Numbered from the stretch's first letter, positions 1 to 5,503 are shown. The stretch is DNA of 5,503 nucleotides from Candidatus Woesearchaeota archaeon (GCA_964468425.1 CAYXSZ010000038.1:1-5503), one strand, 5' to 3'. Notes: a model not told the origin generated them from the letters alone. Numbers and translations: made by a program.

Positions 1-453
1 GGTGAACAAAATATCACCTTTCGGGGCGGTGTAATTGACAAGACAAATAATAACATCTTTATTGGGTGGTACACTCTATTAGACTTCGGAACAAATGGCA
101 CCATCGACGAAGTCCGCATCTATAATAGGGCTTTATCTCCAGAAGAGATAAAGAACTTATTTTATCGTATCCATCTAACACTCTACAACCCCTCAACAAA
201 ACCAATCCAACTAAACAACGCCCACATCTCCATAGGAGACTGCATACTTCCCTTAATATATAACCGCACTTTCATAACAAGTACAGGTAAATCGATCATC
301 TACCCCAATGAGCAGATAACATTAAAGGTAAGTCTGATTGATCCTAAGGATAATAAATACTGTCACGTAGATCCCGGAAAGCGCTATCAAATTTGTTTGA
401 TAGCTCAGGGGAATAAAGTTTGCGGGGAGCTGAGGGTTCCAAGCGTTACATAA
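1..453 (+). CDS. C-terminal part of a LamG / concanavalin-A-like lectin domain surface protein (5' end outside the window)
   Basis: Frame 1 is open from nt 1 to TAA at 451-453. It is absent from the ORF track because no start lies in the window. The translation contains GTIDEVRIYNRALSPEEIKNLF (nt 97-162), the signature C-terminal motif of LamG_3/ConA-like lectin-glucanase domains. A beta-rich tail of about 95 aa follows, with 4 Cys. There are 3 N-X-S/T sequons (NIT, NGT, NRT), consistent with an extracellular protein. Confidence 0.8.
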   Translation, partial: GEQNITFRGGVIDKTNNNIFIGWYTLLDFGTNGTIDEVRIYNRALSPEEIKNLFYRIHLTLYNPSTKPIQLNNAHISIGDCILPLIYNRTFITSTGKSIIYPNEQITLKVSLIDPKDNKYCHVDPGKRYQICLIAQGNKVCGELRVPSVT

Positions 454-475: not shown

Positions 476-1069
476 CTAGTTAGAATATGATGATGGCGAT
501 CCAGTCCGAGCTGTGAAGACTCCTTTAAGTGCTGATGATGATGGACGAAAACTCAGATTACATGAAGAGGGACCAAAACTCTGATCTAATTTAATCCTCA
601 ACGCCAGGTATATAGATTTTAATATAATTCTCATTCTATAGCGTACATTTTCTCTAGAAGACCCATCGTAAAGTTGGATTGTAGCGTTGTTAGTGTATAC
701 TTTAGTTTTTGTTGCATAGCCGAATTTCAATTTGTCAACAATCGTATTCACACTTAGTTCGCACGAGGATGGATAGTATTTACCTAAAACCCATAATATT
801 CTGTCTTCGTACTTTAACGAAATCGCGACCTTCCACTCGTATCCGCTTCGATTAAGAACGTGTAATTCCAAGGAATTTCCTTGCAAGTGATCTAGAATGC
901 TTTCTAGAATACCTACACACCTTCTAGTGTTTTCGAGTTTATAGCAATCTCCGTCCAGAATTCTTTCCAGGCACCTTCTCGCGATGTGCGTTACGTTGAC
1001 ACTAATAGAATTCACGACGAGGTAATCGTTCATAGGTTCTTTCTCTCCTCCTTGCTGGAGCTGCTGCAT
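476..1069 (-). CDS. Hypothetical protein, 197 aa (possibly 185 aa from the ATG at 1033)
   Basis: This is the only long ORF in the region. It starts 28 nt downstream of the primase stop on the same strand, so it is probably co-transcribed. I recognise no family motif. An internal ATG at 1031-1033 is preceded by AGGAGG (1047-1052), but with a long 13-nt spacer, so the start is ambiguous. The last ~36 codons (Ser/Pro-rich tail SFGPSSCNLSFRPSSSALKGVFTARTGSPSSYSN) are antisense to the two C/D sRNA units and may not be genuinely coding. Confidence 0.55.
   Translation of the reverse strand: MQQLQQGGEKEPMNDYLVVNSISVNVTHIARRCLERILDGDCYKLENTRRCVGILESILDHLQGNSLELHVLNRSGYEWKVAISLKYEDRILWVLGKYYPSSCELSVNTIVDKLKFGYATKTKVYTNNATIQLYDGSSRENVRYRMRIILKSIYLALRIKLDQSFGPSSCNLSFRPSSSALKGVFTARTGSPSSYSN
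487..535 (+). ncRNA. C/D box sRNA, unit 1 (2'-O-methylation guide)
   Basis: Box C ATGATGA (487-493), 12-nt guide TGGCGATCCAGT, box D' CCGA (506-509), 4-nt loop GCTG, box C' TGAAGA (514-519), 12-nt guide CTCCTTTAAGTG, box D CTGA (532-535). This is the canonical archaeal layout with both spacers exactly 12 nt. The D guide is complementary to the conserved 16S ACUUAAAGGA segment. Confidence 0.75.
535..584 (+). ncRNA. C/D box sRNA, unit 2 (directly abuts unit 1)
   Basis: Box C ATGATGA (535-541, sharing A535 with the D box of unit 1), 12-nt guide TGGACGAAAACT, box D' CAGA (554-557), 5-nt loop TTACA, box C' TGAAGA (563-568), 12-nt guide GGGACCAAAACT, box D CTGA (581-584). Confidence 0.7.
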
Positions 1070-1097: not shown

Positions 1098-2468
1098 TTA
1101 AGCTTTACTGTCCTCTTTGCTTTTGTATAGTTTCAACTTCTTTATCGGGTATGAGATAGGGTTTTTAACAAGTTTGCAAATTTCGTCCGGCTGGCAAACT
1201 CCCATGTCCTTGTAATATCCCTCGTTTGAGCAGTTTGGTGGGAGATACTTCAATCCTTTATTGTATTTATCTTTATGCCAGCTTATTTGATACTCGATGT
1301 ATCTTTCCCTCAATGGATCTGGGTTATTTTCGTTCCAGTTATTTAATTCTCTTTCAATTTCATCCCATCCCCATCCAAGATTGTACAGGAAATTTATTAA
1401 GATGAATACAGCCCTCTTTCGCCCATCCTCCACTCCTTCCAAAATGTTTTTTATGCAAGGAGGAAAATACTCTTTGGGAACTTTTCCTTTAAATTTAGCT
1501 TTGGATCTTTTGATATCTTTTTCGATCTCCTGCTCTAAACTCGCCTTGATTTGAGTAGTTTTTATTCTTTCTTGTTCCAAGGAGTTCCTAACACTCCATA
1601 TGATTGCTTTTCTAAAGAGCTTGGCAACGTTTTTGTCTTCTTCCAAGTTGTCTGGAAGAAATTCGATCCCCTCGTATGTGTAATAGCCCAGATCAGCGAC
1701 TTCTGGATTGAAGCTTAAAACACTTTCTTTTCGAATTGGAACTGATAACCTCTCTGTTTTCTCATTGATCGAATAGGGCATTCTGATTAAATGTCTAGAT
1801 GAAATTAGAATGGTGTCTATTTCGATTATGTGAAAAGGCGAGAACTTTTCAGGGAGAATATCTAAGTTGTTTTCTCTGATTAGTTCTTCAATTCCAAAAT
1901 TTATTTCGATATATCTTCTTAGATCTTTTTCGATTTGAGAGGCTATGTAAGAAGCGACGATCCTTGCAAGCTCTGGAAATAAATTTTTAGTTTCTTCTTC
2001 AGCTATTTCTTCTTTTTTAAAGATTTTTACTTTTTTCGGTAAAGTTTCCCATGGAATGAAGATGTGAAATCCCTTACCACCGGAGTATTTAATATAAACG
2101 TTTTTAATTTCGTTATTTTCTAGGAACTTGAGGATTAAATAAGCTGTATATTTAGAAATGTCGAAGTTCTTTGAATCCAGGTCGATTACGAAGTCCCATC
2201 CAATGCGTAGATCATTCAGCTCTCTTTTTTTTAATTTAGTTGAGAGTTGTAGCGGGTTTATCCAGCGTTCAACGGACATATGAAATGAGATAGCTCCTTT
2301 TTTAACTAGTTCGAGGATATCTCCTTCGTTTTCGAGAGTATAAGGTCTCTTTCCGAAGCCTCCATTTTCAAACATGTATCCTACCTCTCGATTGATCGAG
2401 ATTCGAACCATTTCTTCGAGAATTTCGGGATTTTTTTTGTAAAATGCGAGAAGCTTTGTTTTTAGCAT
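1098..2468 (-). CDS. priS: DNA primase, single-chain fusion of a PriS (AEP catalytic) domain and a PriL-type Fe-S C-terminal domain
   Basis: AEP motif I is GWDFVIDLD (D96/D98, nt 2175-2183). Motif II is SGGKGFHIF (aa 129-137). Motif III is IEID(218)...SSRHLIRMPYSINEKT. After a charged linker (aa ~296-330) comes a PriL-CTD-like region: FPPC(338)IKNIL...YQISW...YLPPNC(413)...GVC(425)QPDEIC(431). These four Cys are the only cysteines in the protein. Confidence 0.9.
   Translation of the reverse strand: MLKTKLLAFYKKNPEILEEMVRISINREVGYMFENGGFGKRPYTLENEGDILELVKKGAISFHMSVERWINPLQLSTKLKKRELNDLRIGWDFVIDLDSKNFDISKYTAYLILKFLENNEIKNVYIKYSGGKGFHIFIPWETLPKKVKIFKKEEIAEEETKNLFPELARIVASYIASQIEKDLRRYIEINFGIEELIRENNLDILPEKFSPFHIIEIDTILISSRHLIRMPYSINEKTERLSVPIRKESVLSFNPEVADLGYYTYEGIEFLPDNLEEDKNVAKLFRKAIIWSVRNSLEQERIKTTQIKASLEQEIEKDIKRSKAKFKGKVPKEYFPPCIKNILEGVEDGRKRAVFILINFLYNLGWGWDEIERELNNWNENNPDPLRERYIEYQISWHKDKYNKGLKYLPPNCSNEGYYKDMGVCQPDEICKLVKNPISYPIKKLKLYKSKEDSKA
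1134..1481 (-). other. PriL C-terminal (4Fe-4S cluster) domain-like segment inside the primase CDS
   Basis: Covers aa ~330-445. It has the PPC motif plus three further Cys (C338, C413, C425, C431; codons span nt 1176-1457), with spacing and context typical of the PriL-CTD iron-sulfur domain. Confidence 0.75.
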
Positions 2469-2543: not shown

Positions 2544-2615
2544 GCGCCGGTCGTCTAGCGGCTAGGATACGGGCCTTCCAAGCCCGTGACCCGGATTCGA
2601 ATCCCGGCCGGCGCA
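2544..2615 (+). tRNA. tRNA-Gly, anticodon UCC
   Basis: Hand-folded cloverleaf of 72 nt. Acceptor stem GCGCCGG/CCGGCGC with discriminator A2615. D arm GUCU/AGGAU with loop AGCGGCUA. Anticodon stem CGGGC/GCCCG with loop CUUCCAA (anticodon TCC at 2577-2579). Variable loop of 4 nt (TGAC). T arm CCGGA-TTCGAAT-CCCGG. No CCA is encoded and there is no intron. Confidence 0.95.
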
Positions 2616-2616
2616 G

Positions 2617-2642
2617 TTTTAGAGAATTTTACTACTTTTTTT
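2617..2642 (+). terminator. Oligo-T termination region after the tRNA
   Basis: TTTT sits right after the discriminator base (2617-2620), followed by TTTT (2627-2630) and a T7 run (2636-2642). Archaeal RNA polymerase terminates at oligo-T tracts. Confidence 0.5.
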
Positions 2643-2655
2643 AGATTAAGAAGCG

Positions 2656-2662
2656 TTAAAAA
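2656..2662 (+). promoter_or_regulatory. Putative TATA-like element (TTAAAAA) for the ATPase operon
   Basis: Centred about 27-28 nt upstream of the ATG at 2687, with no Shine-Dalgarno sequence in between. This implies a leaderless mRNA. Confidence 0.4.
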
Positions 2663-2686: not shown

Positions 2687-4000
2687 ATGGTAGATATCGT
2701 TGTTGGGAGAGATATGGATGATTTGGAAAAATTCGGACTTTTTGGGACAATTTTTATTGGAAAGGAATATATTAAAATGGAAAACATTCTTTCTCTTGCG
2801 AATAGAGTGTACTTAGATGTTAATAAGCCTCATCTCATTTTGATTTGCGGGAAGCGAGGACAAGGAAAATCGTATACGCTAGCTTCTGTTGCTGAAAGCA
2901 TTGCAATGCTTCCAAAAGATCTTGCAAACAACGTTTCTATCTTGATTTTTGATACTATGGGTATTTTTTGGACTATGAAGTTTCCCAACTATAGAGACGC
3001 CGAACTCCTAGAACGCTGGGGACTTAAACCCCAAGGGCTAAAAAACACACGAGTCCTGGTCCCAGAAGGGCTCGTGGACCTTTATAAGGATATCGATATT
3101 CCTCTGGATGACGTTTTTACGTTAAATCCTTCAGATCTTTCTGGATTCGAGTGGAGCTTAGTTTTTAACCTGGATCCGACCTCACCCATAGCCATTTATA
3201 TTCAAAAACTGGTAAGGAATTTTAAGCAGAGAGAAAGTTTGTTTTCTCTTGAAGAGTTCATTAGATATGTTGAGACTAAAAATCTTGATCCAAAAATCAG
3301 GGACGCTATCGTTAATTACTTTGAGAGCGCAATTGATTGGGGGTTGTTCTCCGAAAATGCTCCGAGAATCAAAAGTCTTGCTAGACCGGGATTCGTTAAC
3401 ATTCTAGATGTCTCAATGTACACAGCTCTAACCGGTGGATGGTCTGTAAAGAACTTAGTCATTGGTCTAGTTTCCAAAAAACTTTTCTATGAGAGAATGT
3501 TATTTAGAAAGAAGGAAGAGCTGGAGGAAGCTCATCTAGGTTATGAAGTAAGGGAGAGGGAATTTCCCTTGATTTGGATTATGATTGATGAAGCTCACGA
3601 GTGTCTTCCTCTAAAGGAAGTTACGCCAGCAACAGAACCCCTGATTCAAATTATTAGAGAAGGACGCCAACCTGGTATAACGTTGGTTTTAGCTACTCAA
3701 CAACCGGGAAAAATTCATACAGATGTTATAACCCAGTCGGATATAGTGATAGCTCATAGAGTTACAGCTCAGCGAGACTTAAAAGCTCTGAATGAGATCA
3801 TGAAAAACTTTTCAGCTCAAGATATCGAGGTTTACATGAACGAAAACCTTCCAAAGAGAAAAGGAGCTGCGCTGATTTTGGATGATAAATCTGAAAGAAT
3901 TTATCCTGTTCAAATGAAGCCAAGAGTCTCTTGGCACGGTGGACAAGATCCTACACTAATTAGGAAGCGAATATGGCTCGAGGAGTTGCGAAGCAGGTAG
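2687..4000 (+). CDS. HerA/FtsK-superfamily P-loop ATPase (HerA/DUF87-like), with a short N-terminal domain
   Basis: Walker A is GKRGQGKS (aa 55-62, nt 2849-2872). Walker B is IWIMIDEAH (aa 296-304, nt 3572-3598). The LVLATQQPGKIHTDVITQSDIVIAHRVT block matches the ATQRP...Q(S/C)(D/N)...R signature of HerA-clade ATPases. A C-terminal KPRVSWHGG motif is present. No TM segments are seen. Confidence 0.85.
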   Translation: MVDIVVGRDMDDLEKFGLFGTIFIGKEYIKMENILSLANRVYLDVNKPHLILICGKRGQGKSYTLASVAESIAMLPKDLANNVSILIFDTMGIFWTMKFPNYRDAELLERWGLKPQGLKNTRVLVPEGLVDLYKDIDIPLDDVFTLNPSDLSGFEWSLVFNLDPTSPIAIYIQKLVRNFKQRESLFSLEEFIRYVETKNLDPKIRDAIVNYFESAIDWGLFSENAPRIKSLARPGFVNILDVSMYTALTGGWSVKNLVIGLVSKKLFYERMLFRKKEELEEAHLGYEVREREFPLIWIMIDEAHECLPLKEVTPATEPLIQIIREGRQPGITLVLATQQPGKIHTDVITQSDIVIAHRVTAQRDLKALNEIMKNFSAQDIEVYMNENLPKRKGAALILDDKSERIYPVQMKPRVSWHGGQDPTLIRKRIWLEELRSR

Positions 4001-5503
4001 AGGGCGCTCTCGCCATTGCGATCTACGTGATGTTTTTGCTATTCTTCCTAGCAGCTGTGAAAATAAAAGTAATTGACGTTGTGAACGAAAACCAAAAGTA
4101 CGAGAACAAGGTTTACCTGGTTGATTACGCGCTTTCAAGAATCGAAGAGCCTTATTATGTTATTACCCTTAGCGCGAGCATTCCAAAAGCTACTAGAAAT
4201 TATATGTGTAATTTATCAGATCCCGACCTCAAAAGGGATTTCTGCACAAAGTTTCCAATCTACTTTCCTTTGAATTTATCTTCTCTCGTGTCGAATAGCG
4301 GGGTCGTAAACGGAACTCCGGATTCTTACTATGATCCAAAGGATGGATTGTTTTTTTACGCAAACTTTTCAACCTTCACCAGTTGCAAGGAGGGAGACAA
4401 GGTAATTGTTCAAATATACAATCCTAACTCATATAGATTACAAGATTATCAGGTTTTCATATCCTCTCCAACAATAAAAGAGTGGTTATCGGCGGGAAAT
4501 CACTTATACATCGTCGACGAAAATGGAAGAACGCATAGCTTTTGCTATCATCACAGCAACTTCGTTTGCAACGCTACTCCGAAGGGTGCATATGGGATTT
4601 GGGTTAAATTAAGCATCAATCCATTTTCCTCCCTGAATTTAACAATTGAAAAAGTATCGAACTCAAATGAAGAGGAAGTTGACGGTTCAAGAATCTTTGA
4701 TTTTTATGACCATTTTACTTACGAGAATGTTAACGATCTTCTAAAAGTGTGGTCTGCGCAATCCTTATCCTGCCAGAGAATATCGGATACGGAGTGGAGA
4801 TGTAAAAGTATTGGTGTTATAAAGAGAAGGAGAAATTCGATATTATACACAAAATCATCCTACGTAAATAAAGATCAGGGTTATACCATTTATTTTAAGT
4901 TGAGAAACAATGCATATTATGATGAAGGATACGGATTAAACGATTACATTGGTGTGGGGGCCTTAAAAGGTAGCATTTTAACTATTTTAGCTAAGGCAAA
5001 GTTCTACGATAACAATTTTTTACTCTTTAATGTGAATGTCGATGAAAATAGCAAGATTCTCGTATACGACAAAGATTATAGGTTCCTTGACAACTACTTG
5101 AATTTTACGATAGATTATGTAATCGTTAAAAAACAAGCGGATTTGGAACCAGTTGTAACGATCGTCCAGGATGGGGAAGAATGCAAAAGAAACTATGAGG
5201 TTGTTGTTGGAAGGCATATCAAGTGGGTTCATCTAGGAAGCTTCCTTGTTTACGATGAAGATAATTTATTACTTAAATACAAAGGATTTTCGAATAGATT
5301 CCTAAGATTTTACTTATACCATTGTACGTGGTGGGGTTGTAACTATAACATTTTGAAAGATTCTTTAAGAAATTTCGATTACTTTTCCTCTCTTTTTTTC
5401 ATAAACAGAAAGAACTCTCCCAATAGCTATGACGGAACAATAAAGAGAAACAACGTATCCATTTACTACGAGGACAGAGACTCCTACACAGAGAGGTATA
5501 TGC
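3973..5503 (+). CDS. Large N-terminally membrane-anchored, Cys-rich, probably glycosylated surface protein (3' end outside the window; at least 510 aa)
   Basis: I checked this frame codon by codon and found no stop from ATG 3973 to the window end. TAG at 3961-3963 closes the frame just upstream, so 3973 is the first possible start. It is absent from the ORF track because it has no stop. The N-terminus is MARGVAKQVEG followed by the hydrophobic stretch ALAIAIYVMFLLFFLAAV. The rest is hydrophilic and beta-rich, with 10 Cys and 8 N-X-S/T sequons. It overlaps the ATPase gene by 28 nt. Confidence 0.8.
   Translation, partial: MARGVAKQVEGALAIAIYVMFLLFFLAAVKIKVIDVVNENQKYENKVYLVDYALSRIEEPYYVITLSASIPKATRNYMCNLSDPDLKRDFCTKFPIYFPLNLSSLVSNSGVVNGTPDSYYDPKDGLFFYANFSTFTSCKEGDKVIVQIYNPNSYRLQDYQVFISSPTIKEWLSAGNHLYIVDENGRTHSFCYHHSNFVCNATPKGAYGIWVKLSINPFSSLNLTIEKVSNSNEEEVDGSRIFDFYDHFTYENVNDLLKVWSAQSLSCQRISDTEWRCKSIGVIKRRRNSILYTKSSYVNKDQGYTIYFKLRNNAYYDEGYGLNDYIGVGALKGSILTILAKAKFYDNNFLLFNVNVDENSKILVYDKDYRFLDNYLNFTIDYVIVKKQADLEPVVTIVQDGEECKRNYEVVVGRHIKWVHLGSFLVYDEDNLLLKYKGFSNRFLRFYLYHCTWWGCNYNILKDSLRNFDYFSSLFFINRKNSPNSYDGTIKRNNVSIYYEDRDSYTERYM
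4006..4059 (+). other. Predicted single transmembrane anchor / uncleaved signal of the surface protein
   Basis: An 18-residue uninterrupted hydrophobic stretch (aa 12-29), preceded by R3/K7 and followed by K30/K32. No other comparably hydrophobic segment occurs in the remaining 480 aa visible. Confidence 0.7.

Follow-up and report, generated by a model that had tools for sequence, protein, structure and literature searches.

A HAS-less HerA-family ATPase gene overlapping a predicted pilin-like gene cluster in Nanopusillaceae archaea

We analyzed a 5503-bp stretch of archaeal DNA (Candidatus Woesearchaeota archaeon, GCA_964468425.1, CAYXSZ010000038.1:1-5503; the whole stretch is called the window in the following), which has a G+C content of ~38%. 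Its second half carries the gene of a HerA-type P-loop ATPase, the 3' end of which overlaps the start of a gene for a predicted surface protein, here named BIG. An earlier interpretation of the window based on its letters only (the sequence-only reading) had proposed that both genes form an undescribed two-gene module, i.e., a HerA/FtsK-type pump paired with a giant, lectin-like surface protein. We investigated the family of the ATPase, the nature of BIG and the conservation of their pairing, and weighed whether the adjacency reflects a shared function. Since the closest relatives of the ATPase are found in Candidatus Nanopusillus (79% identity) and Nanobdella aerobiophila (68%), the window is assigned to the Nanopusillaceae (DPANN archaea). 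The features of the transcription unit are as follows.

2544-2615 (+): tRNA-Gly (TCC), found by ARAGORN and by the Rfam tRNA model (59.1 bits); upstream boundary of the transcription unit
2636-2642 (+): T7 run after the tRNA-Gly, from the list of T-runs
2656-2662 (+): TTAAAAA, a TATA-like box located 25-31 nt ahead of the ATPase start codon; putative promoter, from sequence
2687-4000 (+): gene of the HerA-clade P-loop ATPase, 437 amino acids (aa), soluble; supported by the open reading frame (ORF), Pfam DUF87, alignment, AlphaFold2 (AF2) and Foldseek
2849-2872 (+): Walker A (P-loop) codons GKRGQGKS, residues 55-62, from the 22-sequence alignment
3587-3676 (+): Walker B (D301, E302) to the arginine-finger region REGRQPG (residues 324-330), from invariant columns
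3973-4000 (+): overlap of the ATPase 3' end and the BIG start, 28 nt, from sequence
3973-5503 (+): first 510 codons of the BIG ORF (~731 aa), predicted to be secreted or at the surface, open at the window end
3973-4062 (+): putative class III (type IV prepilin-like) signal region of BIG, by sequence rule
4582-4755 (+): weak DUF2341-like segment of BIG, residues 204-261 (Pfam, sub-threshold)

The ATPase belongs to the HerA clade of the FtsK-HerA superfamily. Across an alignment of 22 homologues, the Walker A residues G55, K56, R57, G58, G60, K61 and S62 are invariant and so are the DE(A)HE Walker B motif, REGRQPG and ATQQPG; the Walker B/REGRQPG stretch is also the part that aligns to solved HerA structures. 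Pfam DUF87, the central domain of HerA, matches with an E-value of 2.8e-9, and the AF2 model, which has a predicted local distance difference test (pLDDT) score of 87.5, places helices at residues 153-217 that correspond to the HerA-type helical insertion. When this fold is compared to the PDB with Foldseek, HerA-type ATPases, among them DndH and TdpA, dominate the top 50 matches (TM-scores of ~0.6). The best ones are the HerA proteins of T. kodakarensis (9x1m, E-value 2.4e-20) and S. solfataricus (4d2i), both at an identity within 17-19%. Sequence searches of PDB, Pfam and NCBIfam likewise rank HerA-type proteins over EssC, CedB/CedD, FtsK and viral packaging ATPases. An identity as viral packaging ATPase or Zot was considered and dropped, as the respective matches are at superfamily level only.

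Ahead of the RecA core, the model shows one short strand, one helix and a beta-hairpin. Because only these residues (4-44) precede the core, the ATPase lacks a complete HAS barrel. The N-terminus is equally short in all aligned homologues. Gene neighborhoods were taken from 80 species-representative GTDB loci, several long contigs and 80 metagenomic loci for which distant relatives served as seeds, with simple ORF calls in the fetched loci unless the collection's own calls existed. No nurA, mre11 or rad50 is among the called genes of the window or within 10 kb in three Nanopusillaceae loci (L002, L004, L006), and the Pfam families of these genes are absent from every called-gene locus examined, whole genomes not having been searched. 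The sequence-only reading therefore described the ATPase itself correctly: the HerA-clade motif set is confirmed by the invariant motifs, DUF87 and the HerA fold, the position of Walker A at residue 55 indeed leaves no room for a full HAS barrel, and no NurA-like nuclease adjoins the gene in the window and the three loci.

These observations have to be related to the reading that the ATPase is a canonical HerA, which acts in DNA end resection with NurA, Mre11 and Rad50 encoded elsewhere, while the genes downstream of it are unrelated. It finds support in the annotation of the N. aerobiophila orthologue as 'DNA double-strand break repair helicase HerA', in archaeal HerA proteins being the best solved-structure matches, and in the inteins and winged-helix fusions reported below, which fit DNA metabolism. 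The RecA-like core, Walker A/B, the arginine-finger region, the inserted helical bundle and the overall fold are shared with HerA. The differences concern the 44 N-terminal residues, which stand in place of a ~100-residue HAS barrel, i.e., the domain by which canonical HerA touches NurA, the low identity to the solved HerA structures, and the neighborhood without NurA, Mre11 and Rad50. Furthermore, the NCBIfam HerA equivalogs give scores of 34.2 and 33.6 bits compared to cutoffs of 800 and 970. Given the missing barrel, the far too low equivalog scores and the absence of nurA, mre11 and rad50 nearby, the ATPase is not demonstrably a canonical HerA, and we consider this reading improbable. The ATPase is a distinct and well-conserved HerA-clade subfamily.

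The strongest profile match to the ATPase in any library is to mad8 of PADLOC (PDLC04140; E-value 7.8e-26, residues 38-425), and it spans the entire profile, which is short (314 positions). Several anti-phage HerA profiles match the ATPase, too. One could thus read it as a defense component, i.e., as a relative of anti-phage HerA or of the mad8 protein from MADS, which is an 8-gene bacterial defense operon (bioRxiv 10.1101/2023.03.30.534895). On the other hand, the ATPase gene is a single-copy core gene conserved throughout the phylum, it shows housekeeping synteny, and it is a target of inteins. The MADS partners were not found beside it, its neighbors in the called-gene loci include no further mad gene, Sir2 or DUF4297, and the two neighboring window proteins that were scanned have no PADLOC matches. 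Despite the mad8 match, we rejected the defense reading on this genomic context and hold it to be barely credible.

With regard to its distribution, the ATPase is a single-copy orthologue of ~430 aa across Nanobdellota, found in at least 596 GTDB species genomes. We collected 5493 homologues with 45-50% identity across orders. Among 1.84 billion searched cluster representatives, 233 reach an E-value of at most 1e-30, including Aenigmarchaeota, Diapherotrites, Thermoplasmatota and Promethearchaeota (Asgard archaea). Many of these relatives are 580-1490 aa long owing to inteins, which occupy two sites. The first is located directly after the P-loop lysine (GKRGSGK/C, with the slash marking the insertion point; residue 61 of the window's ATPase) and carries Intein_splicing with or without LAGLIDADG according to Pfam, while the second is found near Walker B around residues 300-340. 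Intein-bearing orthologues are, e.g., P0124, P0125, P0128, P0131, P0133 and P0137, some of which have two inteins. Inteins concentrate at conserved sites of replication/repair proteins and ATPases.

Domain fusions are seen in relatives at 31-38% identity (P0178, P0183, P0184, P0239, P0240, P0260, P0176). Two of these (P0178, and P0183 from Diapherotrites; 36-37% identity) end in an ArsR/MarR-type winged helix, a DUF835 domain is fused to an ATPase relative in Thermoplasmatota, and Promethearchaeota relatives have long N- and C-terminal extensions without assignment. A winged helix fused to a motor of the HerA/FtsK type is reminiscent of the FtsK gamma domain. We take inteins and winged-helix fusions as hints, short of proof, of a housekeeping role directed at nucleic acids. 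In one locus (L050), a paralogue of 445 aa (MLDLKTPIVIGRGEHDLKKYGKLG...) lies in tandem with the ATPase gene, 23 nt downstream of it.

Next to this widespread gene lies BIG. Its ATG at position 3973 sits within the Ile-Trp codons of the ATPase (ATA TGG), which are Leu-Trp (TTA TGG) in most homologues, and lines up with the starts of eight BIG homologues. The overlap of 28 nt in another frame at 3973-4000, as given by the sequence-only reading, is real. It is also kept: each of the nine Nanopusillaceae loci in which the downstream sequence can be read, i.e., the window and eight others with an ATPase identity of at least 67%, has a BIG homologue that overlaps the ATPase gene at the same junction by 4-28 nt.

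Upstream of the ATPase gene, an A/T-rich box ('tttattaa') is found at the same distance in 5/8 other Nanopusillaceae loci (L004, L006, L010, L011, L012), and in L010 the gene directly follows a tRNA 3' end as it does in the window. A leaderless or near-leaderless promoter at ~2656 that serves the ATPase is therefore plausible. The earlier claim of one shared leaderless promoter holds in so far as the box is confirmed and recurs, while the promoter itself stays putative. As T5-T7 runs occur inside both the ATPase and the BIG gene, the accompanying claim of a missing internal terminator cannot be made for an archaeon.

How much the junction tells about function depends on how common such overlaps are. 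Among same-strand neighbor pairs, 8/16 overlap in the Nanobdella locus and 9/17 in the YN1 locus, including ribosomal protein S19e with a pilin-like 156-aa gene as well as the run of L37ae, two genes of 46 aa and 66 aa, and ZPR1. Since about half of the same-strand neighbors overlap in these compact genomes, the gene overlap carries little weight and is weak evidence for a functional link here.

The window ends within BIG, so its remainder was taken from a 98.5%-identical contig (L090, protein P0121). There, BIG has a full length of ~731 aa and the next gene (MKRAWLALLEVGLSILFL...) overlaps its end by 4 nt. Homologues in L002, L004, L006, L010, L011, L015 and L016 have 531-737 aa. BIG starts with MARGVAKQVEG followed by a hydrophobic stretch of ~19 residues, in agreement with the short tail and single transmembrane helix already noted in the sequence-only reading. 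This region resembles a prepilin signal (MARG/VAKQVEG/ALAIAIYVMFLLFFLAAV; here and below, slashes mark candidate processing sites) in which a charged residue at -2 precedes G at -1, and the candidate cleavage points (RG/V or EG/A) directly adjoin the hydrophobic domain or are found near it (MARG/VAKQVEG/ALAIAIYV...). The visible 510 residues hold 8 N-x-S/T sequons, and all or most of the nine aligned homologues share the cysteines C79, C91, C191 and C199. Conservation of the N-terminal 260 aa amounts to 24-40% identity compared to 67-79% for the ATPase over the same family, and the C-terminal half has no recognizable similarity between species; BIG evolves fast relative to the ATPase. Searching for homologues with the single sequence or with a 10-sequence profile yielded one near-identical fragment only, as candidates were swamped by Asn-rich low-complexity words.

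The sole domain indication in BIG is a sub-threshold match of DUF2341 (PF10102, a PilY1-type adhesin domain) to residues 204-261 (21.7 bits with a cutoff of 23.4, E-value 2.8e-4). DUF2341 is matched by 2/10 BIG homologues. An hhalign comparison with a DUF2341 protein of 461 aa from L014 aligns BIG residues 141-227 (E-value 0.046), where the boundary columns fall inside the DUF2341 domain of the L014 protein and the alignment overlaps the Pfam-matched region of BIG. Both descriptions in the sequence-only reading have to be revised on these grounds: at ~731 aa BIG is not giant, and lectin-like can refer to this sub-threshold match at most, since the clear LamG match belongs to the partial ORF at the left window border.

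The L014 protein is itself part of a second pilin-type pair, which in L014 (5299-7139, -) and L015 (2031-3871) lies just upstream of the ATPase gene and is separated from it by an NMNAT-like gene. The pair consists of a 152-aa ArlF/archaellin-like protein (MKG/IATVISY...) and the 461-aa protein, which has a pilin-like N-terminus and a strong DUF2341 match (E-value 1.2e-19) and is seemingly fragmented in L015.

BIG is not a lone surface protein. In Nanopusillaceae, the order is ATPase, BIG, p106 and p146 on the same strand followed by the convergent p156 (106, 146 and 156 aa). The p106 and p146 genes, each with a 4-nt overlap, and the convergent p156 are found in six Nanopusillaceae loci. The N-termini are MRS/WIILVELAFS... 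or MKRA/WLALLEV... for p106, MKS/QYILLATI... for p146 and MKG/ISLWVEFLIY... for p156, the latter with the same KG/IS site as UpsB. That is, all four cluster proteins start with a short charged stretch with a charged residue at -2 and G/A/S at -1 and continue with a long hydrophobic segment. This agrees with the archaeal prepilin rule, in which a charged residue at -2 is followed by G/A/S at -1 and processing takes place ahead of the hydrophobic domain, as in the KG/IS site of UpsB (PMC4371748). Our scan used a loose rule-based script of our own rather than FlaFind; its rule is met by 4-5% of the other ORFs in these loci compared to four consecutive genes here. Instead of a two-gene unit with a lone surface protein, we thus observe BIG as the first of four consecutive pilin-like proteins.

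The four proteins are not demonstrably paralogues according to the sequence comparisons, since hhalign among the four families and to the ArlF-like protein finds similarity in the hydrophobic helix only (probabilities <12%). PDB profile searches with the cluster proteins gave no matches. Within 10 kb in L002, L004 and L006, there is no T2SSE, T2SSF or Peptidase_A24 (i.e., PilB/TadC or prepilin peptidase), and the cluster contains no gene for a polytopic, CedA-like membrane protein. A further protein of ~98 aa with a short charged N-terminus and a subsequent hydrophobic stretch (MKS/E...) is encoded next to FtsZ and GatD in L002 (3966-4262), L004 (2178-2474), L006 (3968-4261) and L010 (2202-2498).

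Among known systems, the cluster fits, as far as its predicted signals and weak domain match go, the predicted adhesin sets of archaeal type IV pili. Large DUF2341 proteins with at least five small proteins bearing class III signals have been predicted as tip adhesin and minor pilins of such pili, and pilin genes are often unlinked to the pilus machinery genes (PMC4858521), so that the absence of the latter near the present cluster does not disqualify it. For one nanoarchaeal pilus ATPase clade, Makarova et al. 2016 did not identify cognate pilins (PMC4858521). Both sets have a large pilin-type protein with (weak) DUF2341 similarity followed by small class III-like proteins with conserved cysteines (PMC4858521). 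The present cluster differs by the lack of PilB/TadC or prepilin peptidase genes within 10 kb, by its sub-threshold DUF2341, by its place behind a HerA-like rather than a secretion ATPase, and by four proteins without detectable family. The Ced/Ted DNA import systems (the HerA/VirB4-like CedB with CedA/A1/A2, Ups pili) likewise combine an FtsK-HerA ATPase with genetically associated small membrane/pilus proteins. In contrast to these, the scores of our ATPase are far under the NCBIfam cutoffs (14.6 bits vs. 700 for CedB, 18.2 bits vs. 600 for CedD), no polytopic CedA is encoded, and the small proteins have one N-terminal helix. VirB2-like pilins, in turn, form a two-helix hairpin.

We next consider the conservation of the pairing. 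The flanks of the nine Nanopusillaceae loci vary, with at least three contexts: a tRNA is located upstream in the window and in L010 (the window also has a primase gene), and L002, L004 and L006 each show a different surrounding. In L016, HtpX lies upstream and a THEP1-like gene downstream, and the ATPase-BIG pair is kept while homologues of the 106-, 146- and 156-aa proteins were not found next to BIG. Outside Nanopusillaceae the picture changes. No BIG homologue was found in ~70 other Nanobdellota species genomes, and no large N-terminally anchored protein stands beside the ATPase in ~80 further metagenomic loci. Altogether, ~140 loci outside the family are without such a partner behind the ATPase. 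Instead, the ATPase stop of the nearest outgroup (58% identity) lies in a 4-nt overlap with a radical-SAM MiaB-like gene. From the proposed undescribed two-gene module there thus remains a real adjacency in Nanopusillaceae, but neither a two-gene unit nor an obviously new machine, and a synteny of both genes in related genomes does not extend beyond the family.

A neighbor-joining tree of the ATPase shows that its neighborhoods are clade-specific. One clade has the order HtpX-ATPase-Trm5-FEN1, while another has DnaG, a divergent membrane-anchored peptidyl-prolyl isomerase (PPIase), the ATPase and a soluble ~100-aa protein. We looked for a universal partner gene and found none; the recurrent PPIase, HtpX, Trm5, 100-aa protein and DnaG genes are syntenies of single clades. 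In 16 Woesearchaeales-type loci (including L008, L022, L027, L031, L033, L038, L041, L078, L080), the ATPase gene has the soluble ~100-aa protein (M.FSK.FPK...YP.WEE..L..EEE...) encoded just behind it in the same orientation. A membrane-anchored SurA_N-like protein with a thioredoxin-like tail, which is PPIase-like by sequence in its longer members, is the divergent neighbor in 20 loci, and 2 further loci have it at a distance of up to three genes. A single case of a large surface protein at the other end of the gene is found in Nanoarchaeia (L009 3697-8004, +), where a 1435-aa Big_9/cadherin-like protein overlaps the ATPase start by 4 nt. Furthermore, a string of S19e, L37ae, prefoldin beta and SepF genes lies a few kb from the ATPase in both an Aenigmarchaeota locus (L095 1484-3750) and a Nanopusillaceae locus (L002 14580-16952), with differing orientation. 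Possibly, this housekeeping neighborhood is the older arrangement and took up the pilin cluster by insertion.

Taken together, we slightly favor the following explanation over the remaining readings combined: a phylum-wide, probably DNA-directed, HAS-less HerA-family ATPase is co-transcribed and overlaps with a pilin-like cluster that is specific to Nanopusillaceae. Two different things would share one transcription unit and a shared function is not required. The ATPase would be a soluble, presumably hexameric protein with a core role independent of any surface protein, most likely a housekeeping DNA translocase or a repair or segregation motor. BIG would open the cluster as a glycosylated DUF2341-like adhesin or large minor pilin of ~731 aa. 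The cluster proteins would enter the membrane via Sec, a prepilin peptidase would cut them directly in front of the hydrophobic helix or a few residues earlier, and a PilB/ArlI-type machinery encoded elsewhere would assemble them into a surface filament or its tip. In genomes of ~0.6-0.8 Mb with packed genes, the pilin cluster could have come to sit behind the ATPase gene, where it would probably be co-transcribed from the leaderless promoter at ~2656 and translationally coupled to the ATPase.

Several observations weigh against this explanation. The junction persists in spite of the differing flanks, while plain drift might have broken it. The class III signals of the four proteins are predicted at the motif level, none of them has a matching curated family in Pfam or NCBIfam, and BIG was modeled by AF2 from a two-sequence alignment at a pLDDT of 32, with only the N-terminal helix 2-41 above 50. 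The DNA-directed role of the ATPase, albeit the most likely one, is presumed. Finally, pilin-like genes are not confined to the ATPase neighborhood of Nanopusillaceae. On the same strand and within 1.6 kb of the ATPase, they are seen in at least three other lineages (L030, L095, L108/L113/L115), and outside Nanopusillaceae their density is 0.37 ORFs per 10 kb within 1.5 kb of the gene vs. 0.10 beyond 3 kb.

In L030, three pilin-like genes lie 0.5-1.6 kb downstream of the ATPase. The Aenigmarchaeota locus L095 has a canonical pilin (MKG/VSTIIATLMILVIV, i.e., MKG/VSTIIATL) 55-73 nt downstream by our own ORF call, and L108, L113 and L115 show KGQ..E-type pilin-like genes upstream, with three of them in L108, the last ending ~550 nt ahead of the ATPase. 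The local density is ~3.7-fold higher, which relates to 15 vs. 7 ORFs with related loci counted separately and without phylogeny correction, and several of the hits counted are ordinary signal anchors. Close relatives of L095 with up to 86% identity (L126) have no adjoining pilin. We therefore treat the enrichment as a lead, not as a finding.

An alternative is that the ATPase and the pilin-like proteins form a functional module, with the ATPase as a motor at the cytoplasmic face of a pilus-like structure made of BIG, p106, p146 and p156. It might pump DNA or another macromolecule or drive assembly, i.e., act in an uptake or host-contact device loosely like Ced or like competence pseudopili with their translocase. 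Such a module would account for the overlapping adjacency kept through flank rearrangements in the nine loci, for the pilin-like genes next to the orthologue in the other lineages and for their mild local enrichment. In M. maripaludis, the epd locus encodes a DUF2341 protein and pilins that are needed for natural transformation (PMC10133366). Two carriers of the cluster, N. aerobiophila and YN1, have an attachment organelle, and N. aerobiophila additionally has a second appendage of 15 nm (PMC11104419; PMC11420986). In turn, the ~140 other loci of the ATPase family, L126 included, lack such neighbors, and the ATPase has neither a membrane segment nor, in Nanopusillaceae, an extra domain. Pilins of known systems are assembled by PilB/ArlI-type ATPases (PMC4858521), the CedB and CedD scores are far below their cutoffs with no CedA-like gene in the cluster, and unrelated genes overlap routinely in these genomes.

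We thus regard the functional module as unlikely, and rate a real ATPase-pilus apparatus in Nanopusillaceae as unlikely to improbable. Its most specific form is decidedly improbable: here, the HAS-less ATPase and the four pilin-like proteins would be a new apparatus in which a cytoplasmic pump sits on a pilus- or tube-like structure (the 15-nm appendage or a part of the attachment organelle) that takes up DNA or macromolecules of the host, with the ATPase working with unlinked pilins in other DPANN archaea. A literature search for a HerA-pilin link in DPANN gave nothing relevant.

What follows for annotation differs between the two explanations. If the favored one, i.e., two different things in one transcription unit, is correct, the DPANN ATPase labeled 'HerA' or 'ATP-binding protein' is a distinct HAS-less, intein-rich subfamily that is probably DNA-related, and four 'hypothetical' genes in the cultivated N. 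aerobiophila and YN1 become candidate pilus adhesin/minor-pilin genes. If the link is functional, the combination of a HerA-type pump and pilin-like proteins would be new and would offer a handle on how host-dependent archaea get material from their hosts, with two carriers in culture.

The first half of the window holds three further features.

1-453 (+): C-terminal 150 residues of a partial protein with a LamG/Laminin_G_3 domain near the end (Pfam)
476-1069 (-): 197-aa ORF, called as a gene on the JGI contig, too
1098-2468 (-): fused PriS-PriL primase, 456 aa, with DNA_primase_S and DNA_primase_lrg in a single polypeptide

The 197-aa ORF has no matches in Pfam, NCBIfam, PADLOC and PHROGs. 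The Nanobdella, YN1 and ENA loci have the same PriS-PriL fusion at a distance of ~8 kb from the ATPase. In the partial ORF, the LamG motif IDEVRIYNRALSPEEIKNLF is followed by ~100 further residues. A motif nearly identical to it is found in a protein of the Aenigmarchaeota locus (L095 11920-12863) that joins a pilin-type N-terminus to LamG, and therefore the partial gene may encode a pilin-like adhesin as well.

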